From assembly GCA_049322215.1 (NCBI GenBank), contig JBMORU010000001.1, positions 580,023-644,022 on the forward strand: a stretch of DNA of 64,000 nucleotides, read 5' to 3'. The notes under the pieces are model-generated. The model was not told where the DNA came from, ran no database searches, and saw nothing but the letters and a program-made list of their open reading frames with translations. A program made the position numbers and the translations under genes. This DNA is from Patescibacteria group bacterium. GTDB taxonomy: Bacteria; Patescibacteriota; WWE3; UBA101185; UBA10185. Numbering within the stretch: the first letter of the stretch is position 1; each line of letters starts with the position of its first letter. Shown one piece after another: positions 39,875-64,000 of this stretch.

Positions 39875-40411
39875 TTAATCCTCAGACATTAAAGCAATTT
39901 CGGCACCCGTGAAAGTTCTTGTGTAGAGTCTTCCTCTTTGGTCTTTTGCAAAAACAGTGATTGAATCTTCTTGGGAAATTGATTCTATAGATAGGTGTAT
40001 TACCCCGTTGTCGTGAACGTGATTTGTTCCTACCATTGCTGTGATAATGCTACCTGCAAATTCTGTTGTGAGCGTACTATCTGTAATGTTGGCATTTTCA
40101 ACCCAGTACTCGGTGATTCCTGACTGGCTATACAACAGAATATCTATCCAGCCGGTGCTTTCCAGTTGAATGTCTTCGTCCATATCTCCTGTTGCTATTG
40201 ACATGTTGTTGGTAAACACATCTATCATCATTTGTGGTTCAAAAATCCAAGTATGTCCGCCGTCCGCTTGTTTCATTTGCAGCCAAAACATATTACCCGT
40301 ATCTACAGACGCATGCGGCCCCATTTGGTTGAGGACTGTGTTAAGCATAAATAATGCCAAAGCTAGCAGTGCCGCTAGTCCCGTTATAGTTCTAACGTCT
40401 TTTTTATTCAT
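39875..40411 (-). CDS. Hypothetical secreted or membrane-anchored protein
   Basis: 178 aa with a signal or anchor (ITGLAALLALALFMLNTV). No motif recognised. Confidence 0.45.
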   Translation of the reverse strand: MNKKDVRTITGLAALLALALFMLNTVLNQMGPHASVDTGNMFWLQMKQADGGHTWIFEPQMMIDVFTNNMSIATGDMDEDIQLESTGWIDILLYSQSGITEYWVENANITDSTLTTEFAGSIITAMVGTNHVHDNGVIHLSIESISQEDSITVFAKDQRGRLYTRTFTGAEIALMSED

Positions 40412-40474: not shown

Positions 40475-41734
40475 TTAATGTTTTAAAAAGCTGCTTATTT
40501 TACCCTTTGTGTTATCTGCTTGCAGTGTATCAGCCGTTACAATTGTAAATTCCCCAAATTTGTTGTTTATTAAATCAGAAGTTTTAATAAGTTTCTCGTT
40601 TCTTTGGTATTCTGGTAGCAAATACAAAGGTAAACTCTTTTTTTTTATTAAATTACTTATGCTTACCCCTACTAGTCTTGTTTCCCTATTCCAGTGCATG
40701 TTGGCTAAAATTTTAACGGTGGTGTCGTATATTACTTTTCCATCTTCTGTATAAGTAGCTATCGTGAAATCTTGATGGTATCCTTTTTTACTAGCATCTC
40801 TTAAGTACAACGAAATTGTTTTACCTGCCATTTTGTTTCTACGCAGCCTTCTTGCCACCATTTCCGAAAGTTTTCTCAAGTTGCGCTTAATAATTTGTAA
40901 ATCTTTTGTGTTTTTATTAAGAGTGTGTTGATGTCCTATTGATTTAGGGGCTTTTTTGATCTCGGCTTTACTAACCCTGCTGTAATCTACCCCATAACTT
41001 AAGTTTTTTAGAAATGCGCTTTCTACATTACCAAACGCTTTATAAAGAGTTTCTATATCTATATTTTGGAGATCACATACTGAATAAACACCTAAATTAT
41101 TTAGTCGATATTCAATTTGTCTTCCTATACCACAAAAATCCCTAAGTGATGCTTTTTCCAGTATTGAAAGTAAATTTTCTTGGGTGACTTCTACAATGCC
41201 ATTTGGTTTTTCCATATCAGATACTAATTTAGCTATTAACTTATTTGGGGCGATACCTATTGAGCATGTTATATAAGGGCCAAACTTTTTTTTGACTTTA
41301 TTTTTTATGTCTAAGGCAATAGCTTTAGATGACTCAAAGTTTTTTAGGATGTGCGTAATATCTAAAAATGCCTCATCTATACTGAATGGTTCTATCAAAT
41401 CGGTATACTCATTAAAAATCTTTAAACTTTCTTTTTGAATATATGTGTATTTAGTTCCATCTCCTTTAACCGGCAATATGTTGGGACACAATTCTTTTGC
41501 TTTAAATAAGGGCATACCAGTTTTTACCCCAAAAACCTTTGCTTCTTTTGAAGCGGCGCATATTATAGCTCGGCTTAAAGAACTTCCAGTTATGCCAATA
41601 GGTTTGTTCCTCAAAAAAGGATTAGCTTGCTGTTCTACAGAAGCAAAAAAAGAGTCGTAATCTATATGTAGTATGACTCTATTTTTTGTATTTTTTTGCC
41701 TTAAGTTTGTATTTTTGTTTAATGTTGGGAACAT
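40475..41734 (-). CDS. dinB: Y-family (DinB/UmuC-like) translesion DNA polymerase
   Basis: ILHIDYDSFFASVEQ, the catalytic Asp-containing motif of Y-family polymerases, and SIDEAFLDIT. 419 aa. Confidence 0.8.
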   Translation of the reverse strand: MFPTLNKNTNLRQKNTKNRVILHIDYDSFFASVEQQANPFLRNKPIGITGSSLSRAIICAASKEAKVFGVKTGMPLFKAKELCPNILPVKGDGTKYTYIQKESLKIFNEYTDLIEPFSIDEAFLDITHILKNFESSKAIALDIKNKVKKKFGPYITCSIGIAPNKLIAKLVSDMEKPNGIVEVTQENLLSILEKASLRDFCGIGRQIEYRLNNLGVYSVCDLQNIDIETLYKAFGNVESAFLKNLSYGVDYSRVSKAEIKKAPKSIGHQHTLNKNTKDLQIIKRNLRKLSEMVARRLRRNKMAGKTISLYLRDASKKGYHQDFTIATYTEDGKVIYDTTVKILANMHWNRETRLVGVSISNLIKKKSLPLYLLPEYQRNEKLIKTSDLINNKFGEFTIVTADTLQADNTKGKISSFLKH

Positions 41735-42005
41735 CGTTTAACTTGTAATCTTTTACAAACCCTTCAGAATAAACTTCTTTTATACGCCATAACAAATGTT
41801 TTGTATTAAAAGTTAATTTGAAAGCCTCGTTTTTAGTTGAAACCGCAAAGTGGTATAAAAGACTATCTCCTTCTTTTGAAGTATGTATAAAATTAATATC
41901 TTTAATTTCGTAGTCAGTACCTTTCCAGGTAAAGTACAGTGGTATTGCACCTGCATAAGTGAAGTTTACAAGTATTTCTATAGGGTCATTAACTCTTTCA
42001 AACAT
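41679..42005 (-). CDS. Small protein encoded immediately upstream of the Y-family polymerase and overlapping it by 56 nt; possibly YolD-like (UmuD-analogue)
   Basis: 108 aa with a Lys-rich C-terminus. The position (small gene fused in an operon with a umuC/dinB-type gene) matches Gram-positive yolD/yqjX-type genes. The ATG lies 5 nt downstream of a TATATA -10 box, so the mRNA is probably leaderless. Confidence 0.45.
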   Translation of the reverse strand: MFERVNDPIEILVNFTYAGAIPLYFTWKGTDYEIKDINFIHTSKEGDSLLYHFAVSTKNEAFKLTFNTKHLLWRIKEVYSEGFVKDYKLNDVPNIKQKYKLKAKKYKK

Positions 42006-42011
42006 ATATTA

Positions 42012-42040
42012 TATATACCCGAAACTAACCCGAATGTAAA
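42012..42040 (-). promoter_or_regulatory. Promoter with TTCGG direct repeats in the spacer (candidate SOS operator) for the yolD-like/polymerase operon
   Basis: Read on the minus strand: TTTACA - TTCGGGTTAGTTTCGGG (17 nt) - TATATA. The same architecture is present at lexA. Confidence 0.5.
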
Positions 42041-42109: not shown

Positions 42110-42361
42110 ATGAGCAATAAAGTTATTAGGTATTTTTGGGCTAAGCTTGGAAGTGCCGATACGGTGCAGCACTTGTTGCAGAAAAATCGTTTGACCAGTG
42201 ACATTGAAATACTACCACCAACGCCTGCTTTTGATCCAAAGCATCAGCCGGTACGCTTTATGCACGATACCACAATGCCGTTTAATTTTGATGTAGAAGC
42301 AATGGCGCCACATACAGTAGACAGTGCCAAAATACACGATACTTCTTATAGAAGCTATTAG
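42110..42361 (+). CDS. Small protein, family A paralogue 1 (unknown function)
   Basis: 83 aa with SD aaaggagacaaataATG. It is 35-40% identical to the next ORF (MSN..Y.WA..G.A..V..LL.K....EI.PP..FDP..QPV.F.....PFN.D....T.D.A.IH). Confidence 0.5.
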   Translation: MSNKVIRYFWAKLGSADTVQHLLQKNRLTSDIEILPPTPAFDPKHQPVRFMHDTTMPFNFDVEAMAPHTVDSAKIHDTSYRSY

Positions 42362-42375
42362 CAAGGAGGTTACTC

Positions 42376-42633
42376 GTGTCAAATATTGATTTTGGTTATT
42401 TATGGGCGAGTATTGGGAATGCTAACAAAGTACGTGATTTATTAAATAAGCACGTTCAAGCGTCTGGTGTTGAAATAATGCCCCCAGAACTTGGCTTTGA
42501 CCCACCATATCAACCTGTGGAGTTTTGTTACAACAGAAGCATACCGTTTAACCTCGATAGGTCAGTTTTTGGGCCGTATACCATAGATAACGCACGCATT
42601 CACTCGGGTACAAGAAAAGTCAAAAGATCCTGA
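42376..42633 (+). CDS. Small protein, family A paralogue 2 (unknown function)
   Basis: 85 aa with a GTG start and SD caaggaggttactcGTG. Tandem paralogue of 42110..42361. Confidence 0.5.
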   Translation: MSNIDFGYLWASIGNANKVRDLLNKHVQASGVEIMPPELGFDPPYQPVEFCYNRSIPFNLDRSVFGPYTIDNARIHSGTRKVKRS

Positions 42634-42638
42634 CTTGA

Positions 42639-42690
42639 GTTGCTGCTAATTGGTTTTAAAATTGATTAGCAGCAATTTAATTATTGACAC
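42639..42690 (+). terminator. Stem-loop (probable terminator) after the family A pair
   Basis: TTGCTGCTAAT / 15-nt loop / ATTAGCAGCAA forms an 11-bp stem followed by TTTAATTATT. Confidence 0.45.
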
Positions 42691-42699
42691 CGACTTTAT

Positions 42700-42866
42700 A
42701 TCATTATAGATTCAAACTAGTTTAAACTACGACGGCCTTTGGAAAGCCAGAGTTTTAATTTAATATTAAGCGGACTGTTTACAGTCAAGCGGGGTGGAAC
42801 CGCGCAAGTTTACACTTTCGTCCCCGAATTTATATAATAGATTTGGTGGTAGATAAGTGTTTTTTT
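42700..42866 (+). promoter_or_regulatory. Putative T-box riboswitch-like leader of glyQS
   Basis: GGGTGGAACCGCG at 42792..42804 matches the T-box core GGGUGGNACCGCG at every defined position. A GGC (Gly) codon lies in a small hairpin GGCCUUUGGAAAGCC upstream. No canonical terminator U-tract was found, only a CGGGG/CCCCG helix. Confidence 0.4.
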
Positions 42867-44339
42867 ATGTCTGAAATAACTCTTCAAAAAATAGTAGCTC
42901 TAGCTAAGCGCCGTGGATTTGTATTTCCGGGTTCGGAAATATATGGCGGACTTGCTAACACCTATGATATGGGACCTTTAGGGGTTGAATTACTTCGTAA
43001 TATTCAAAATTCCTGGTGGAAAACTTTTGTGCATAATAGAGAAGATATAGTTGGTTTAGATACAAGTATTTTGATGTCTCCTCGTGTTTGGGAAGCCTCT
43101 GGTCACACGCAAAGCTTTACTGATGTACTAATCGATTGTAAAGAATGTAAAACACGCACTAGAGCAGATCACTTGATTGAAGACTGGTTTGCGGAGTCAA
43201 AGCGGGAGCTTGCCCGTAATGATGAAAAAGGTAAGGGGACTTATGTTGCGCATGTGGAAACCGAGGTAGGGTCTTTAAATGCCGCGCTAGATTCTAGTGC
43301 TGAAATTAACCAATCTGTCGAAGGACTTTCCCCAGAAGAATTAGAAAAAATAATTAAAACAAACAAAATAACATGTCCTTCATGCAAGAAACTTAATTGG
43401 ACTAAACCTCGCGCATTTAATTTATTATTTGAAACAAATGTGGGAATAGTAGAAGAAAGTCAGTCAAAAGTTTATTTGCGAGGAGAAATAGCTCAAGGAA
43501 TGTTTGTAAATTTTAAAAATGTGCTAGATACTGTGCGTCCTAAACTACCTTTTGGTATTGCTCAATCAGGTAAAGCCTTTAGAAATGAAATAACTTTAGG
43601 TAATTTTATATTTAGAACTCTTGAATTTAACTTAGCCGAATTTGAATACTTTATAGACCCTAAAGAATCTTCATGGGAAGAAGTTTTTGAATACTGGCAG
43701 GATGAAGTAAAAGCTTGGGTTTTGTCATTAGGTATAGACAGCAAAAAACTTAAATGGCGTCCACATACAGATGAAGAGCGTGCACATTATTCTACAAGAA
43801 CAGAAGATATAGACTTTGAGTTTCCAATGGGTTTTAAAGAAATGGCTGCAGTTGCATATAGAACTGATTACGACCTACGCAATCACATGGAAAAATCAGG
43901 CCAGGATATGCGCTACACAAACCCTCAAACCGGTGAAAAATTTATACCACACGTTATAGAACCTACCTTTGGTATTAATCGCGTGTTTTTAGCTTTACTG
44001 GTAGATGCTTATGCAGAAGAAGAAAATAGAACAGTTTTAAAACTCGATCCTAAAATTGCACCTTATAGAGCAGCGGTGTTTCCTTTAGTACGAAATAAAC
44101 CTGAAATTACCGATTATGCACGCAAAGTGTTTTCACAACTTTCCAACATCGTAAACGTTGCTTGGGATGATCGTGGTAATATAGGTAAGCGCTATTTAAG
44201 CCAAGATGAAATTGGAACCCCATATTGCATAACTGTTGATTATGATACTTTACAGGACAACTCCGTTACAGTAAGGCATAGAGATACAACCAAACAAGAA
44301 CGTGTCTCAGTAGATAATCTCATTAAGTACATTAGCTAA
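42867..44339 (+). CDS. glyQS: Glycine--tRNA ligase (class II, single-chain alpha2 type)
   Basis: IVALAKRRGFVFPGSEIYGGLANTYDMGPLGVELLRNIQNSWW and the class II motifs. The start was placed at the ATG at 42867 (MSEITLQ) rather than the listed TTG at 42843. Confidence 0.85.
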   Translation: MSEITLQKIVALAKRRGFVFPGSEIYGGLANTYDMGPLGVELLRNIQNSWWKTFVHNREDIVGLDTSILMSPRVWEASGHTQSFTDVLIDCKECKTRTRADHLIEDWFAESKRELARNDEKGKGTYVAHVETEVGSLNAALDSSAEINQSVEGLSPEELEKIIKTNKITCPSCKKLNWTKPRAFNLLFETNVGIVEESQSKVYLRGEIAQGMFVNFKNVLDTVRPKLPFGIAQSGKAFRNEITLGNFIFRTLEFNLAEFEYFIDPKESSWEEVFEYWQDEVKAWVLSLGIDSKKLKWRPHTDEERAHYSTRTEDIDFEFPMGFKEMAAVAYRTDYDLRNHMEKSGQDMRYTNPQTGEKFIPHVIEPTFGINRVFLALLVDAYAEEENRTVLKLDPKIAPYRAAVFPLVRNKPEITDYARKVFSQLSNIVNVAWDDRGNIGKRYLSQDEIGTPYCITVDYDTLQDNSVTVRHRDTTKQERVSVDNLIKYIS

Positions 44340-46595: not shown

Positions 46596-46641
46596 TGAAA
46601 AAAAGAGCCGATAACTCTTTAATAGTAGATTATCGGCTCTA
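46596..46641 (-). terminator. Rho-independent terminator for the 46639..46854 gene
   Basis: AGAGCCGATAA...TTATCGGCTCT forms an 11-bp stem, followed on the minus strand by TTTTTTTCAATTTT. Confidence 0.6.
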
Positions 46642-46854
46642 TTTACTGACTTTTATGACAATAGAAATCAGCGCTATTATTATTAAACCAGTTAAGAAAC
46701 TTCCAAAATTTAGAAACAACATTCCAATCCAGTTAAACATTGGTGCGATGCTTCTTTCTACCAATACGTTGTCGATAACTGGTATTACAAGTGTAAAAAA
46801 CAAAAAAGTTAATACGCCTGCTAGCCCATAATCTATTAAACGCCAGTTTCTCAT
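46639..46854 (-). CDS. Small integral membrane protein (unknown function)
   Basis: The start was moved to MRNWRLIDYG, preceded by aaaaggagaaaacaaATG. Two TM helices. Confidence 0.4.
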   Translation of the reverse strand: MRNWRLIDYGLAGVLTFLFFTLVIPVIDNVLVERSIAPMFNWIGMLFLNFGSFLTGLIIIALISIVIKVSK

Positions 46855-46919
46855 TTGTTTTCTCCTTTTAGTATTTGCTTGTAGTATAGCATTTTCGGGT
46901 TCTGTTTGTATTGACAATG

Positions 46920-58094: not shown

Positions 58095-58250
58095 ATGGTA
58101 AAAAACGGTAATACTAAAAATGGGGCAGCACCAGATAAAAAAAATCACAAGAGTCAAAAGCGGGTTAAAAAGGTGACACCTGTGCCTCACACGCACTGGA
58201 CTGACTGGTTTAAACAGTACCATCGTGAGAGACAACGTTTGCCCAGGTAG
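58095..58250 (+). CDS. Unlisted small basic protein (51 aa), convergent with lexA
   Basis: Strong SD ttaaggagagaaaATG. Product MVKNGNTKNGAAPDKKNHKSQKRVKKVTPVPHTHWTDWFKQYHRERQRLPR. It was preferred over the antisense 58077..58289 ORF, which has no SD. Confidence 0.35.
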   Translation: MVKNGNTKNGAAPDKKNHKSQKRVKKVTPVPHTHWTDWFKQYHRERQRLPR

Positions 58251-58315: not shown

Positions 58316-58939
58316 TTAGTATTTTCTTATTACGCCTGTTACTTTTCCTTGTATTTGCAAATCTCCTGGATTTACATAAATAGGATCCATATTTTGATTA
58401 GCGGGTTGTAAGCGTACTCTATCTTTTTCTTTATAAAATGTTTTTAGTGTTGCAAAATTATTATCAATTAGAGCTACAATAATATCTCCATTGTTTGCTG
58501 TTTCTTGCTTTTGTATTACTACGTAGTCTCCATCATGAATGCCTTCTTCAATCATGGAGTCACCACGAACTTGTAGTACATAACATCGCTTAACTCGTGA
58601 AACTAAATCAGGAGAAACCACAATAGTTTGAGTGCTGTCTTCGATAGCATCAATAGGTTCACCTGCTGCAATGAAACCTACTAATGGAAGCTCTATTCCT
58701 TGTAGGGTTGCATTTACTTTTTCATCTAAAATTTCTATTCCCCTAACAGCTCCTTCAAATCTCTTTATAACACCTTTTTTAACTAGTGCTTGCAAATGTT
58801 CGTGCACTGTAGCTAATGATGATAAGCTCATTGCGTCTGCAATTTCTTGCAATGTAGGAGAGGATCCATTTTTTTGAATATATTGGGAAATAAAGTCTAG
58901 AATTTCTTTTTGACGTTTATATAAAGTAACTGCACACAT
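58316..58939 (-). CDS. lexA: LexA repressor (SOS regulator, S24 self-cleaving peptidase)
   Basis: N-terminal winged HTH (RQKEILDFISQYIQKNGSSPTLQEIA). C-terminal LQVRGDSMIEEGI (Ser nucleophile) and the Lys in GKVTGVIRKY. Confidence 0.85.
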   Translation of the reverse strand: MCAVTLYKRQKEILDFISQYIQKNGSSPTLQEIADAMSLSSLATVHEHLQALVKKGVIKRFEGAVRGIEILDEKVNATLQGIELPLVGFIAAGEPIDAIEDSTQTIVVSPDLVSRVKRCYVLQVRGDSMIEEGIHDGDYVVIQKQETANNGDIIVALIDNNFATLKTFYKEKDRVRLQPANQNMDPIYVNPGDLQIQGKVTGVIRKY

Positions 58940-58983
58940 AGAAGACCTTTCTAAATAATTTTGGGTTTCTTTTGGTAAAATAA

Positions 58984-59012
58984 ATATACCGAAGAGTTAC
59001 CGAAGATGTCAA
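58984..59012 (-). promoter_or_regulatory. lexA promoter with two TTCGGTA direct repeats filling the -35/-10 spacer (candidate SOS operator)
   Basis: Read on the minus strand: TTGACA - TCTTCGGTAACTCTTCG (17 nt) - GTATAT. Confidence 0.55.
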
Positions 59013-59082
59013 CTGCCTAATTAATTTGCTACAATTTTAAAGTTATTGAATACCCGAATATACGCAAAGTAAGGAGATAAAT

Positions 59083-59355
59083 ATGCCAGAGAAGAAATTT
59101 GTGCGAAAACCAGAAGGTAAAAATGAGGTAAAAGGAAAAGTTATAAAGGCGAGTGGAAGACATTTTACGGTTGAAGTTCCAGGGGAAAAAAAGCCTTTGA
59201 TTTGGGCCAATGCTTTTTATGACAGTCATAAAGGTTGTTGGTGGGGTATGGTGAATGATTCAACTGTTTGTTGGTGGGAAGGAAACTATAATGTTGACTT
59301 AAAACCAGCTGTGCACGTGCCTAACATACCTGGTCGTGGCATTTTAGGAGGTTAA
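59083..59355 (+). CDS. Small protein, family B paralogue 1 (WWG-motif protein, unknown function)
   Basis: 90 aa with SD gtaaggagataaatATG. It shares SG..F.V...K....A.YD...G.WWG..N..T.C.W with the next ORF. Confidence 0.5.
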   Translation: MPEKKFVRKPEGKNEVKGKVIKASGRHFTVEVPGEKKPLIWANAFYDSHKGCWWGMVNDSTVCWWEGNYNVDLKPAVHVPNIPGRGILGG

Positions 59356-59365
59356 AGGAGAAACA

Positions 59366-59632
59366 ATGTCGGAAGATGGTTTTATTGCAGGAGTACCGGA
59401 GTCTGTTGTAAAGATTCGCGCAAGTGTTGTATCCAGGTCTGGTGAGAGAGCGTTTAAGGTTCGTTTAAAATCAGAAGGAAAAGCTGAGGTAAATGTTGAA
59501 TATGCATGCTATGACGTGAAACGTGGTCGTTGGTGGGGAAAGATAAACGCAAAAACTATTTGTTATTGGCGAGCGCAACCACCAAATGGGATTAAGTTGG
59601 GCAAACGCATACTTTCTTGGCTTCCAGTTTAA
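59366..59632 (+). CDS. Small protein, family B paralogue 2 (WWG-motif protein)
   Basis: 88 aa with SD aggaggttaaaggagaaacaATG. Tandem paralogue of 59083..59355. Confidence 0.5.
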   Translation: MSEDGFIAGVPESVVKIRASVVSRSGERAFKVRLKSEGKAEVNVEYACYDVKRGRWWGKINAKTICYWRAQPPNGIKLGKRILSWLPV

Positions 59633-59642
59633 TAGAAATTTA

Positions 59643-59690
59643 AGGGGATAAATAAAGCAATTTTGTTTTATTAATCCCCATTTTTATTTG
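59643..59690 (+). terminator. Rho-independent terminator after the family B pair
   Basis: GGGGATAAATAAA...TTTATTAATCCCC stem of about 13 bp with one mismatch, followed by ATTTTTATTT. Confidence 0.65.
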
Positions 59691-59740
59691 TGCTAATACA
59701 ACTCCAAACAAAACCCAAAACTTATGTTAAAATTTAATTT

Positions 59741-61819
59741 ATGTTTGACCTTCACGCATCTTATAAACCTACTGGTGATCAACCTAAAGCCATAGAGCAG
59801 CTTACTGAATGGGTTAACAATAACAGCCGGAATCAGGTTTTACTTGGTGTTACGGGTAGTGGAAAAACCTTTACAATAGCTAACGTAATTAAAAATACTA
59901 ATAGACCAACACTTATTATTTCTCATAACAAAACATTAGCTGCTCAACTTTATCAAGAATTCAGAGATTTTTTTCCAAACAATGCAGTTGAATACTTTGT
60001 GAGTTATTACGATTATTATCAACCAGAAAGTTATTTGCCTCAAACAGATACATATATAGAAAAAGATGCTGATATAAATGAGGAAATAGAAAAACTGCGT
60101 TTAGCAGCTACTACTTCTTTAATGAGTAGAAAAGATGTAATAGTGGTTTCTTCAGTTTCATGTATTTACAATTTGGGTTCACCGGCTGAGTACTCGAATT
60201 TTGCTGTAAGACTAAGTAAAGGCATGAAGATTCGGTTGCAAGACTTGTTAACACGTCTTACTCAAGTTCACTATGAAAGAAACGAATTTGATTTTGTAAG
60301 AGGTAGTTATCGCGTTAGAGGTGAAATTGTAGATGTATTTCCTGCATACCAGGATTTTGGTGTGCGCTTAGAGGTGTTTAATGATACTCTTGTCGACATT
60401 TCTTATTTTGATCCTTTAACAGGAGAGGTTATTAACTTTAGTAACTTGCCTAAAACAAGATTAGGCGGGCGTATCAGAGAAATTACACAAAATGAGGGTG
60501 AATACATAAAACACTTAATACAAAATAGTCTTGTAGAAATTTATCCTGCAAAACACTACATAACTGCAGAAGAACGTCGTCCGGCTGCAATTAAGCAAAT
60601 AGAAGCTGATTTAGAAGAACACCTAAAGTTTTTAAGAAACACTGGTAAAACTATAGAAGCCTACCGTTTAGAGCAACGAACTCGCTATGATTTAGAAATG
60701 GTGCAAGAAATAGGTTACTGCAAAGGAATTGAAAACTATTCACGTTATTTTGATGGGCGAAAGCCTGGAGGTACACCATATACATTAATGGACTTTTTCC
60801 CTAAAAATTATTTAGTGGTAATTGATGAGTCTCATATTACTGTTCCGCAAATTAGGGGAATGTTTAACGGTGACCAAGCGCGTAAAAGAGTTTTAATTGA
60901 GCATGGATTTAGATTACCTTCTGCATTGGATAATCGTCCCTTAAATTTTGAAGAATTTATGCGTAATTTGAATCAGGGTTTGTACACGAGTGCTACTCCT
61001 GGAGATTGGGAATTAAGTATGGCTGAGGGTAAAATTGCTGAACAGTTAATTAGGCCAACAGGAATTGTAGATCCTGAAGTCATTGTTTTACCCACAAAAA
61101 ATCAAATTACAGATTTAACAGAAAAAATACGAGCTCGTGTGAAAAATAAAGAACGTGTTTTAGTTACTACTTTAACAAAAAGAATGGCTGAAGAATTGTC
61201 TACATACTTGCTTGAACAGGGCATAAAAGTTACTTACTTGCATTCAGATATTATCACGCTCGAACGAACTGCAATTTTAGATGATTTACGTAGAGGTAAT
61301 TATGATGTACTTGTTGGAATTAATTTATTAAGAGAAGGATTAGATTTACCTGAAGTTTCTTTAGTAGCTATTTTAGATGCAGATAAAGAAGGCTTTTTGA
61401 GATCAGATACCTCATTAATTCAAACAATGGGTAGAGCGGCACGCCACATTCAAGGTGAAGTTGTAATGTATGCTGATAATATTACTAAAAGTATGGAACG
61501 TGCCATTGAAGAAGTAAGTCGTCGTAGAGAAATTCAACGAGAATATAATATTGCACATAATATTGTTCCTCAAAAAATTACAAAGCCTATAAGAGAAAAA
61601 TTAATTGATGAGGAAATAGAAGAAAGTATCAGTGGAAAAGACAAAAGGAAATCAAAGTTTAAAGATGTAGATTACATGTCACTTTCTCCCAATGACTTTA
61701 AAAAAGAGCTAAAACGCCTTACTGAATTAATGAAGTATGAAGCAGAAATGCTTAATTTTGAAAAAGCAGCCGTTATTAGAGATCAAATACGTAAAATCAA
61801 AAAGATCCGAGAGGAGTAA
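59741..61819 (+). CDS. uvrB: Excinuclease ABC subunit B
   Basis: Walker [16 protein letters not shown], helicase motifs, the beta-hairpin region and a C-terminal UVR domain ([13 protein letters not shown]). Confidence 0.9.
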
Positions 61820-62182: not shown

Positions 62183-62551
62183 GCTTAACATACTTTAGCA
62201 TCTTGACGATTTCCCTTTAAGGAAAATATAATCAAGTTAGTTAGGAGCCAGGGCTTTGCGCCGAATAGCTCGATACAAATTCGCTTTATCACGTTTTCGG
62301 TTACTATAACAAATGCTTATAAATAGTTCGGATTAAGTTCCGTTTTGTTGCATTGTATTTAAAAGTTCATATTGATGTTAAAAAGTGTAGTTAGTAGTTT
62401 AAAAAAACTAATACTGCTCGTGCTATTTGAGATTGTTGATTTTTTGGTTTGGTTGGGCAATAAAATCCTCTTTGCAGTAGGGGGTTTAATTAGGCATGTT
62501 CGGGATTTTCCCATTTATGTAAAACGCATTCCATTAAGTAAGTTAAGTAAT

Positions 62552-64000
62552 TTGCCAAAAACAAAGAACTTCAAATTGAAGTTTAAAGCTGTCCCTCTCA
62601 AAATAAAATTAAAAAATTCTGCAAAGAAAAAAAGATCAATTAAAAAAAGAAAAGATAAACGTGAAATAAAATTGGTTCCTAGGTTTTTTAAAAGCTTTTC
62701 TGTGTTTACTTCAGGTATGTTTTTTACTTTGGTTTTTGTTTGGTTTCCTTTTGAAGCTTACACTTGGTATTCGTCCTTACCTCAGCCTAGTCTTTTGTTA
62801 GAAACTGAACACAATAAGTCCACAAAAATTTTGGACAGAAATGGAAAACTTTTATATGAAATATATGTTGACAAAAAATACGATCCAGTTCCTTTAAATG
62901 AAATACCTGACTATGTTGTTAATGCCACTTTGGCAATAGAAGATGATGCTTTTTACTTCCATAAAGGAGTTAGACCTTTAAGTATGCTAAGAGCAGCAAA
63001 GGCCATAGTGCTAGATGATCACTTACAAGGTGGTTCTACAATTACACAGCAACTAGTTAAAAATGTGTTGTTATCTCCTGAGCGTACTTTTCAAAGAAAG
63101 CTGAAAGAAGGAGTATTAGCATTAAGAGTTGAACACACATTTACAAAAAATGAAATTCTTGAAATGTATCTAAACAATATTCCCTATGGTGGAACTGCCT
63201 GGGGAATTCAGGCTGCTTCTAAAAAATTTTTCAACAAAAAAGTTCAAGATTTATCTTTGGCTGAAGCAGCGTATTTGGTTATACTTCCTTCTGCTCCAAC
63301 TACCTATTCTCCATATGATGGTGATAAAGATCTTGCCAAAAGTAAACAACACTTTGTTTTAGATAAAATGCACGAGTTAGGTTACATAAGCAAGGCCGAA
63401 GCTGACTTAGCAAAAAATGAAGAGTTAGTTTTTGCTACACCGGTAGAGTATATAAGGGCGCCTCATTTTGTCAGTTATATAAGAAGTGAGTTAGTAAAAT
63501 TGTATGGAGAACGCATGGTAGATTTTGGTGGCTTAACTGTAACTACTTCTTTAAACATTGATTTGCAAGATAAGGTTCAGGAAATTGTAGCTGAAGAAGT
63601 TGCTAAAAGTAATGACCTAAATATAACTAATGGTGCGGCAGTGGTTTTAGATAGCGAAAATGGAGAAATTCTTGCACACGTAGGCTCAATAAATTACTTT
63701 GATAAAGAACACGATGGTGCATTTGATGTTGTAACTGCCTATAGATCTCCCGGGTCTACAATAAAAGCAGTTACCTATGCACTTGCTTTAGATAGTGGTT
63801 TAACGCCTGTCACTCAAATAAATGATTCTCCATTTACAGTTCAGGCATACGGGCAAACTTACTCCCCGGTAAATTATGATGGAAAATTTCATGGGCGGGT
63901 TTCGTTAAGAACTGCCCTTGCAAATTCTTATAATATTCCTGCAGTTAAGTTAGTAAAAGCTTTGGGTCCGGATAAAATGGTTGCACTTGGAAAAAGCATG
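62552..64000 (+). CDS. Class A penicillin-binding protein (PBP1A-type, GT51 transglycosylase plus transpeptidase); 3' end beyond the window and the start uncertain
   Basis: GT51 motifs EDDAFYFHKGV, GGSTITQQLVKN and RKLKE. Transpeptidase motifs STIK and SYN. The frame is open from 62399 with no in-frame ATG before the TM segment, so a TTG start at 62552 is assumed (GTG 62420 and TTG 62576 are alternatives). It is not in the ORF track because there is no stop in the window. Confidence 0.7.
   Translation, partial: MPKTKNFKLKFKAVPLKIKLKNSAKKKRSIKKRKDKREIKLVPRFFKSFSVFTSGMFFTLVFVWFPFEAYTWYSSLPQPSLLLETEHNKSTKILDRNGKLLYEIYVDKKYDPVPLNEIPDYVVNATLAIEDDAFYFHKGVRPLSMLRAAKAIVLDDHLQGGSTITQQLVKNVLLSPERTFQRKLKEGVLALRVEHTFTKNEILEMYLNNIPYGGTAWGIQAASKKFFNKKVQDLSLAEAAYLVILPSAPTTYSPYDGDKDLAKSKQHFVLDKMHELGYISKAEADLAKNEELVFATPVEYIRAPHFVSYIRSELVKLYGERMVDFGGLTVTTSLNIDLQDKVQEIVAEEVAKSNDLNITNGAAVVLDSENGEILAHVGSINYFDKEHDGAFDVVTAYRSPGSTIKAVTYALALDSGLTPVTQINDSPFTVQAYGQTYSPVNYDGKFHGRVSLRTALANSYNIPAVKLVKALGPDKMVALGKSM

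Follow-up and report, generated by a model that had tools for sequence, protein, structure and literature searches.

An orphan pair of small paralogous genes between lexA and uvrB in a WWE3 patescibacterium

We analyzed a stretch of 64,000 nucleotides (nt), hereinafter the window, from a Patescibacteria group bacterium (GTDB lineage Bacteria; Patescibacteriota; WWE3; UBA101185; UBA10185; GenBank assembly GCA_049322215.1, contig JBMORU010000001.1, positions 580,023 to 644,022 of the forward strand). Our subject is a pair of adjacent genes for small proteins, B1 and B2 (together, family B), that lie between the DNA-damage response genes lexA and uvrB. With all positions counted from the start of the window and lengths of proteins in amino acids (aa), the locus comprises the following:

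59083–59355, forward strand: coding sequence of B1, 90 aa, called as a gene in the NCBI and Logan assemblies
59366–59632, forward strand: coding sequence of B2, 88 aa, a paralogue of B1
58316–58939, reverse strand: lexA (Pfam Peptidase_S24, E = 7e-32; LexA_DNA_bind, E = 8e-20)
59741–61819, forward strand: uvrB, which follows B2 and in relatives is the conserved gene divergent from lexA
59071–59076, forward strand: Shine-Dalgarno sequence of B1, AAGGAG, 6 nt before the ATG, as read from the sequence
59354–59359, forward strand: Shine-Dalgarno sequence of B2, AAGGAG, 6 nt before the ATG, overlapping the stop codon of B1
59644–59679, forward strand: terminator hairpin after B2, with the U-tract AUUUUUAUUU next to it at 59680–59689

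An earlier annotation of this DNA, made from its letters alone (the sequence-only reading), had described two adjacent paralogous open reading frames (ORFs) of 90 and 88 aa, divergent from lexA, each with a strong Shine-Dalgarno sequence and sharing a terminator; all of this is borne out, with the coordinates exact. The spacer between the divergent lexA and B1 measures 143 base pairs (bp). In a single BLASTP comparison B1 and B2 are 34% identical over 71 aa (E = 2e-11), and the same match reaches E = 7e-9 in an all-against-all comparison of the 177 ORFs of the window. Their invariant residues include a G-x-WWG motif, an N-x-x-T-x-C-x-W motif and an N-terminal S-G-x-R-x-F-x-V block. No homologue besides the pair was found among all window ORFs of at least 25 aa. 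Because the ribosome-binding site of B2 overlaps the stop codon of B1, translation of B2 is probably coupled to that of B1. The hairpin after B2 (ΔG −20.7 kcal/mol, z = −4.8, with none of 200 shuffles equally stable) closes the unit ahead of the uvrB promoter; a simple terminator scan did not pick it up because its loop and stem exceed the limits of the scan. No Rfam matches to structured RNAs were found within the window.

Homology searches place family B in this one species. In word-indexed searches of 5.8 billion clustered proteins, B1 and B2 matched nothing but themselves; both entries come from a 1.11-Mb contig labelled "Patescibacteria group bacterium" and are listed as hypothetical proteins. 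Pattern scans of the JGI metagenomes and IMG/VR gave no family B match, a sequence profile search against the PDB returned nothing, and there was no significant match in Pfam, PHROGs, NCBIfam or PADLOC (weak, sub-significant ones being TIGR03975 for B1, E = 0.19, and the PADLOC REase_II for B2, E = 0.028). The locus itself was recovered only from near-identical contigs in three assemblies, across which it shows two substitutions, one synonymous and one non-synonymous; a search for strains with an identical LexA that lack the pair turned up only the same contig. Within the databases searched, family B is a species-restricted ORFan.

An exhaustive HMMER profile search of 1.84 billion representatives recovered only B1, B2 and 11 giant repeat proteins. 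The latter reach E-values down to 1.8e-23 against the B profile as sums of 5–27 weak stretches, which on local re-scoring mostly attain 0–8 bits each (best 14.5 bits), and hhalign gives a probability of 7.5% for B against the profile of their ~112-aa repeat. On these two counts we rejected the giant proteins as homologues of B. The real B profile scores 35–99 bits on them against ~0 for column-shuffled profiles, a control that is biased because the giant proteins had been selected with the real profile. The repeats look Calx-beta-like by eye, with no Pfam match at E 0.1, and every one of them carries a pattern (G-x-x-A-x-F-x-V-x-L-x-S-E-x-x-A-x-V-x-V...D...G) in register with residues ~14–55 of B; in contrast, the WWG...C-x-W motif has no counterpart in them and B covers only half of a repeat unit. 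A test of B1 and B2 for a Calx-beta or giant-repeat domain gave neither a significant single-domain match nor a Pfam Calx-beta match. There appears to be some position-specific resemblance in the pattern of beta-strands, which does not establish homology.

The position beside lexA is equally restricted. We compared 80 species-level loci that code for LexA relatives of up to 81% identity, the closest of which are labelled WWE3 or Patescibacteria. The ORFs of at least 40 aa that lie no more than 5 kb from lexA in the 80 species include no match to the profiles of family B or of the second orphan family of the window (family A, below), and family B is absent even where LexA is 72–81% identical. 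The comparison proposed in the sequence-only reading, whether such a WWG pair always accompanies lexA, hence yields no relative in the databases searched and none in the 80 loci. Of the two outcomes it had named as telling against it, a match to a known unrelated family and a lack of conserved adjacency to lexA, only the second was observed.

What does recur beside lexA is uvrB. In the loci L004, L007, L010, L015 and L037, it starts ~90–150 bp upstream of lexA on the opposite strand. In five other close relatives (L003, L005, L008, L011 and L012), uvrB is still nearby and other genes occupy the gap: L005 and L008 have a 400–421-aa gene there (a scan of the L005 gene showed a winged-helix regulator domain), L003 has two unrelated ORFs and L012 a sigma factor. 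In more distant relatives, histidine kinase, transglutaminase or coiled-coil proteins adjoin lexA. The conserved divergent partner of lexA is uvrB, not B. Filled by different genes in different relatives, the space between lexA and uvrB is thus a variable spot for insertions, in which the B pair is the cargo of this species.

The composition of the pair sets it apart from its surroundings. The GC content of B1 and B2 falls in the 94th–98th percentile of same-length chunks of window genes, as does that of the two family A genes, A1 and A2, relative to the window's ordinary genes. The codon usage of B2, A1 and A2 lies at the 3rd–4th percentile of such chunks (B2: 4th). Both families have high GC and high GC at third codon positions (GC3), with codon usage atypical in three of the four genes. 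For the B pair this composition fits a recent acquisition. An origin from a mobile element was considered; flanking direct or inverted repeats were sought, and none were found except the LexA boxes themselves.

Both proteins are basic (isoelectric point 9.4 for B1 and 10.0 for B2) and hydrophilic. Their maximum 19-residue Kyte-Doolittle means are 0.34 (B1) and 1.04 (B2); neither has a hydrophobic stretch able to span a membrane, nor a LysM or other Pfam domain. AlphaFold2, run twice on the same two-sequence alignment with the target swapped, predicts an all-beta core at residues ~14–65 with a disordered C-terminal tail for B1 (pLDDT 71) and six strands within residues 15–68 for B2 (pLDDT 68, five concordant models). 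Searched against the PDB with Foldseek, neither model has a significant match (best E 0.39–0.44, TM-score ≤ 0.4), and a fold search of BFVD returned nothing. The top Foldseek lists, non-significant as they are, consist mostly of small beta-barrels: the proteasomal/PAN ATPase OB domain, IF1/eIF1A, HypC and KOW/SH3 domains. B1 and B2 resemble the OB, SH3 and KOW barrels, their best though non-significant structural neighbors, in also being basic; unlike them, they have no sequence similarity to these families, and the likeness stays at E of at least 0.39 in models built from two sequences. The B proteins are most likely small beta-barrel-type domains acting together, perhaps as a B1–B2 heteromer that would bind nucleic acid or another protein.

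Given the position of the pair, the LexA boxes of the window bear directly on its interpretation. In most of 24 relatives inspected, the lexA promoter has the form TTGACA-[TTCGG N6 TTCGGTA]-TAnnAT; that is, the LexA box is a direct repeat, TTYGG-N6-TTYGGTA, with an 11-nt period, seated between TTGACA and the −10 element. This agrees with a published statement that direct-repeat LexA motifs evolved in certain lineages, with Patescibacteria among the cited cases (PMC7739468). The Patescibacteria LexA motif was reportedly described by Sanchez-Osuna et al. (2017), a paper cited for a direct-repeat motif. We built a position-weight matrix from the lexA promoter sites of 18 relatives, leaving the window out. 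It finds five window sites of at least 16 bits against 0.23 in shuffled sequence; four of the five belong to the promoters of lexA, uvrB and the Y-family polymerase operon, and no site is placed so as to repress B. The sites and the promoters around them are:

42017–42034, reverse strand: LexA box of the polymerase-operon promoter, 20.0 bits
58987–59004, reverse strand: main LexA operator TTCGGTAACTCTTCGGTA, 19.2 bits, in the spacer of the lexA promoter
59012–59007 (−35, TTGACA) and 58988–58983 (−10), reverse strand: lexA promoter, TTGACA-18-TATATT
58960–58977, forward strand: second LexA-like box, in the lexA leader, 18.4 bits, inverted relative to the main operator
59702–59719, reverse strand: LexA-like box of uvrB, 16.4 bits, 5 nt upstream of the uvrB extended −10
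59725–59733, forward strand: extended −10 of uvrB, TGTTAAAAT, 5 nt downstream of that box
62728–62745, forward strand: matrix site of 18.9 bits, T-rich, inside a penicillin-binding protein (PBP) gene

The last of these is probably spurious. The lexA promoter agrees with the consensus at 11 of 12 positions. The full repeat CCGAA-N6/7-CCGAA occurs in the window at the lexA and polymerase promoters only (2 against 0.06 expected). L003 and L007 have an equivalent of the leader box of lexA; L004 and L010, where lexA is almost leaderless, do not. The uvrB arrangement recurs in L004, L005, L007 and L010 as a box (18.6 bits in L004, 17.5 in L005, 15.3 in L010 and 10.0 in L007), a few bases, a TGnTAnAAT element and an ATG 6–7 nt later. 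The box and extended −10 downstream of B2 thus indicate that uvrB kept its own SOS promoter; therefore, the B pair stands between two complete SOS promoters, not behind one. The window accordingly displays the direct-repeat LexA box of the clade at lexA, at uvrB and at the Y-family polymerase operon.

As a side observation, the uvrB ATG follows its extended −10 TGTTAAAAT by only 7 nt (6–7 nt in relatives), and lexA of L004 and L010 is similar. Because of this short distance, uvrB, as well as lexA in L004 and L010, is probably translated from leaderless mRNA, in contrast to B1 and B2 with their classic Shine-Dalgarno leaders.

For the B pair itself, we propose the following signals:

59027–59035, forward strand: predicted B1–B2 promoter with the extended −10 TG-C-TACAAT (TGCTACAAT), the best candidate for a promoter
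59006–59011, forward strand: weak −35 of the predicted promoter, ATGTCA, on the same base pairs as the lexA −35
59050–59061, forward strand: half-site ATACCCGAATAT of the sequence-only reading, covering roughly +9 to +20 from the predicted B start

Transcription would start near 59042. The type of promoter is rare in the window, with four matches to TGNTAYAAT against 9.6 expected, and a TGnTAnAAT-type promoter is also present at uvrB and at the lexA-divergent genes of relatives. As an aside, TGNTAYAAT is depleted in the window as a whole (98 of 100 shuffles have at least four matches), as would be expected if stray promoters of the kind that the lineage seems to use were selected against.

The sequence-only reading had noted a half-site of the repeat 24 nt upstream of the B1 ATG. 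Its placement is right: the core TACCCGAA lies at 59051–59058, about +10 to +17 of the predicted transcript. The 8-mer is only weakly non-random: the window has three copies where 0.95 would be expected, and three or more turn up in 4 of 100 shuffles. Together with the unit that follows, TACGCAAAG, the half-site makes up a degenerate repeat whose period is 10 nt as against the canonical 11 nt, which is the period of all 18 training sites and of every strong site of the window. The corresponding 18-mer scores 1.5 bits with the relatives' matrix, compared to 16–25 bits for real sites. The nearest full box, the main operator at 58987–59004, is at about −38 to −55 of the predicted start, neither between nor over the B promoter elements, unlike the boxes at lexA, uvrB and the polymerase operon. 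No full direct-repeat box of 11-nt period was found overlapping the B promoter elements. The proposal that B1 and B2 are DNA-damage-inducible is not supported by these results. Direct repression of B by LexA is possible rather than indicated, and we rate it as a clear minority prospect. An indirect coupling of B to the SOS response is possible because the −35 of B overlaps that of lexA, and steric coupling through this common region could run in either direction.

A second pair in the window enters the argument through its resemblance in layout:

42110–42361 and 42376–42633: the family A pair, paralogues with 42% identity (E = 1e-24)

The window has no small tandem paralogue pairs other than families A and B, and its ORFs of at least 25 aa include no further homologue of either. 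Family A, which is divergent from the Y-family polymerase operon, is likewise orphan in homologue searches, and the two families are unrelated, as had been claimed (hhalign probability 0.1%). The symmetry between them, each sharing a control region with a LexA-boxed promoter, had been called striking in the sequence-only reading. It is real as a layout, and the location of both pairs beside the two strongest LexA boxes is suggestive. The window has six divergent intergenic regions, of which the two pairs occupy two, and the chance of two inserts falling in precisely those gaps is ~7% by our estimate, if such gaps are the main tolerated sites. A layout of this kind would follow from insertion into permissive gaps about as readily as from function, and the family A promoter, read by eye, is clear of the LexA box.

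The explanation that we favor, with moderate confidence, is that B1–B2 is a species-restricted ORFan two-gene operon inserted between the lexA and uvrB promoters, a compositionally atypical insert that was probably acquired recently. It would have entered the lexA–uvrB control region, which is back-to-back in several close relatives. The pair would be transcribed from its own extended −10 TGCTACAAT, with B2 probably coupled to B1 in translation, and transcription would end at the strong hairpin ahead of the intact, LexA-boxed uvrB promoter. The products are paralogous, small and basic, probably cytoplasmic with all-beta cores, and perhaps heteromeric. The pair lies outside the conserved LexA regulon, and any link to DNA damage would be indirect: because the −35 of B overlaps that of lexA and the operator ends 2 bp away, expression might be modulated by LexA occupancy or by RNA polymerase at the strong lexA promoter.

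Several points weigh against this explanation. First, the promoter and transcription start of B are predictions, and a generic promoter scan finds 5 sites in the B region against 4.9 in shuffles. Second, the lexA operator abuts the B −35, which leaves room for regulation by LexA. Further, the leader element TTTGCGTATATTCGGGT rises to 12–14 bits once one spacer column of the matrix is deleted to give a 10-nt period; it then ranks 2nd–5th in the window for three of the four columns, and 7th, at 11.4 bits, for the fourth. It could be a decayed or non-canonical LexA site. Third, both orphan pairs adjoin the two strongest LexA boxes, which is hard to dismiss entirely. Fourth, the raised GC could stem in part from the amino-acid composition of the proteins (W, G, R) rather than a foreign origin. 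Finally, the structural models depend on a two-sequence alignment, and the small beta-barrel is a lead only.

The strongest competitor, which we nevertheless consider unlikely, holds that B1 and B2 are true SOS effectors, repressed by LexA through the lexA control region and the leader half-site and induced by damage. They might, for instance, inhibit division from the cytoplasm as SulA does, arrest growth, or bind DNA as repair accessories. Such a role would agree with the 143-bp region held in common with lexA, the operator that ends 2 bp from the B −35, and a 9-nt unit at ~+9 to +17 identical to the promoter-proximal unit of the polymerase operator. It would also accommodate the rank of the leader element among the top window sites at a 10-nt period, the mirrored layout of family A at the other strong LexA box, and the basic charge of the proteins, which is compatible with DNA binding. 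There is also a precedent: the lexA-divergent genes of several Gram-positives encode non-homologous SOS division inhibitors (PMC6851548). Against these stand the lack of a full 11-nt-period box in a repressing position, the absence of the pair from species with closely similar LexA, and a family A promoter that appears to be clear of its box.

The precedent itself, although the nearest pattern known, fits B poorly. In Bacillus, Listeria, Staphylococcus, Mycobacterium and Corynebacterium, the lexA-divergent genes encode non-conserved SOS division inhibitors, of which YneA, SosA, ChiZ/Rv2719c and DivS have a single transmembrane segment and an extracellular C-terminal part, with LysM in several (PMC6851548). 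The B genes are, like theirs, small, poorly conserved and divergent from lexA; since those families are mutually non-homologous, an additional, novel family in this place would be in keeping with them. Unlike them, however, the B proteins have no transmembrane segment or LysM. Those inhibitors are under LexA control and hold their place throughout a genus or family, while B lacks a full box in a repressing position and is absent from all relatives; and where those loci hold one gene, the B locus holds a duplicated pair. B thus shares the position divergent from lexA only, and departs from the inhibitors in three testable features.

SulA, the cytoplasmic SOS inhibitor of FtsZ in Enterobacteria, is a protein of ~169 aa with an alpha/beta RecA-like fold, and its gene has a canonical LexA box. 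B1 and B2 resemble it in being soluble and cytoplasmic and would, like it, act by binding a protein partner; unlike it, they are of ~90 aa, all-beta in the models, and without a sequence or Pfam match to it. A different parallel is uvrA–ssb of Escherichia coli, a divergent SOS pair with a shared operator. In the relatives, uvrB and lexA are likewise divergent, each with its own LexA box. The B locus resembles both in combining two divergent units and one short control region with LexA boxes. The difference is that the B promoter merely abuts the lexA box, whereas the boxes of lexA and uvrB overlap their own promoters. The further suggestion of toxin-like factors found no footing: the B genes are paralogous to each other and match no known family, and the two-component pattern of a type II toxin–antitoxin system was not found. 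We conclude that position alone does not justify annotating B1 and B2 as SOS genes, and better-placed candidates for division inhibitors exist nearby: a 71-aa protein with two transmembrane segments and a protein with a transmembrane segment and a LysM-like region encoded after the PBP gene, both described below.

Less probable again is an origin as foreign DNA that is decaying or has no function, left over from a mobile element, a phage or a giant-repeat gene, with frames that happen to have stayed open. Its confinement to one species, the atypical GC of the pair and codon usage of B2, the different cargo of the gap in different relatives, and the weak resemblance of residues ~14–70 to the first half of the ~112-aa repeats (35–99 bits, with the biased control mentioned above) would all be expected of such a remnant. 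It is harder to reconcile with the state of the two copies: although diverged to 34% identity, both still have an intact frame, a start codon, a ribosome-binding site and the invariant Trp/Gly/Cys motif, which points to purifying selection since the duplication. Further, there is no match to a phage or defence family, no flanking repeats mark a mobile element, and the low hhalign probability for the giant-protein repeats speaks against that source.

A more speculative proposal, to which we give somewhat less credence still, is that the divergent sides of LexA-controlled promoters are a cradle from which new SOS genes emerge in this streamlined lineage. The unrelated families A and B, whether newly born or of recent acquisition, would each have landed beside a LexA box, duplicated, and become expressed upon damage through promoter overlap, with the B proteins as a new class of soluble all-beta SOS effectors, e.g., a heterodimeric DNA- or FtsZ-binding factor. 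We know of no SOS division inhibitor in Patescibacteria, which have tiny genomes. Damage-inducibility of B, if real, would give a first hint that this group has SOS effectors specific to a lineage, and would show how new genes gain regulation by landing beside an existing operator.

Finally, that B is anti-correlated with the SOS response, being expressed mainly in undamaged cells because polymerase at the lexA promoter would exclude polymerase from the B promoter after LexA cleavage, seems very improbable: the near-consensus lexA promoter (11/12) does overlap the B −35 (59012–59007 against 59006–59011) and the LexA box is inside the lexA promoter and not inside that of B, but the argument is purely geometric, extended −10 promoters need little −35 contact, and polymerases might alternate.

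We turn to the two membrane-associated candidates, for which the relevant sites are:

46894–46911: LexA-like direct repeat of the 71-aa gene, 15.2 bits, in the same layout as at uvrB promoters and ending 2 nt upstream of the TG of the extended −10
62327–62344: LexA-like site upstream of the PBP gene, 14.9 bits, 28 nt before the start codon

The 71-aa protein (46639–46854, reverse strand) has two hydrophobic segments (MRNWRLIDYGLAGVLTFLFF...) and an AAGGAG ribosome-binding site. Its promoter has the extended −10 TGCTATACT, within a control region at 46883–46916. The gene is divergent from mraZ-rsmH-(ftsL?)-ftsI, and its box also abuts a TTGACA that could serve mraZ. From these features, the 71-aa membrane protein appears to be a better candidate for an SOS division inhibitor than the B pair. 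The second is a 157-aa protein (L001 15580–16053), encoded on the same contig ~0.7–1.1 kb past the end of the window. It has a single hydrophobic segment and a LysM match below threshold (E = 0.0033, 17.8 bits against a cut-off of 20.9). Its combination of a transmembrane segment and a LysM-like region is that of the YneA/ChiZ-type architecture, and it too looks like a better candidate than B. Its gene overlaps the end of the class A PBP gene, with uvrA a few genes further on.

Three further observations concern the neighborhoods of lexA and family A. Convergent with lexA is a very basic 51-aa ORF (MVKNGNTKNGAAPDKKNHKSQKRVKK...; 58095–58250, forward strand) with a good ribosome-binding site; it matches no family, ranks at the 100th percentile in GC3 and is called as a gene in public assemblies. 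Downstream of family A is a gene for a class II aminoacyl-tRNA synthetase at 42843–44339. The ~200 bp of non-coding sequence between the two (42640–42842, forward strand) contain GC-rich stem-like segments and have no Rfam match at gathering thresholds; they could be a divergent leader or a T-box-like element. On the other side of family A, the Y-family polymerase (40475–41734) is flanked in its LexA-boxed operon by two ORFs:

39875–40411 and 41679–42005, reverse strand: ORFs of 178 aa and 108 aa, without a family match

The codon usage of the 178-aa ORF lies at the 0.1 percentile, and its GC3 is high.

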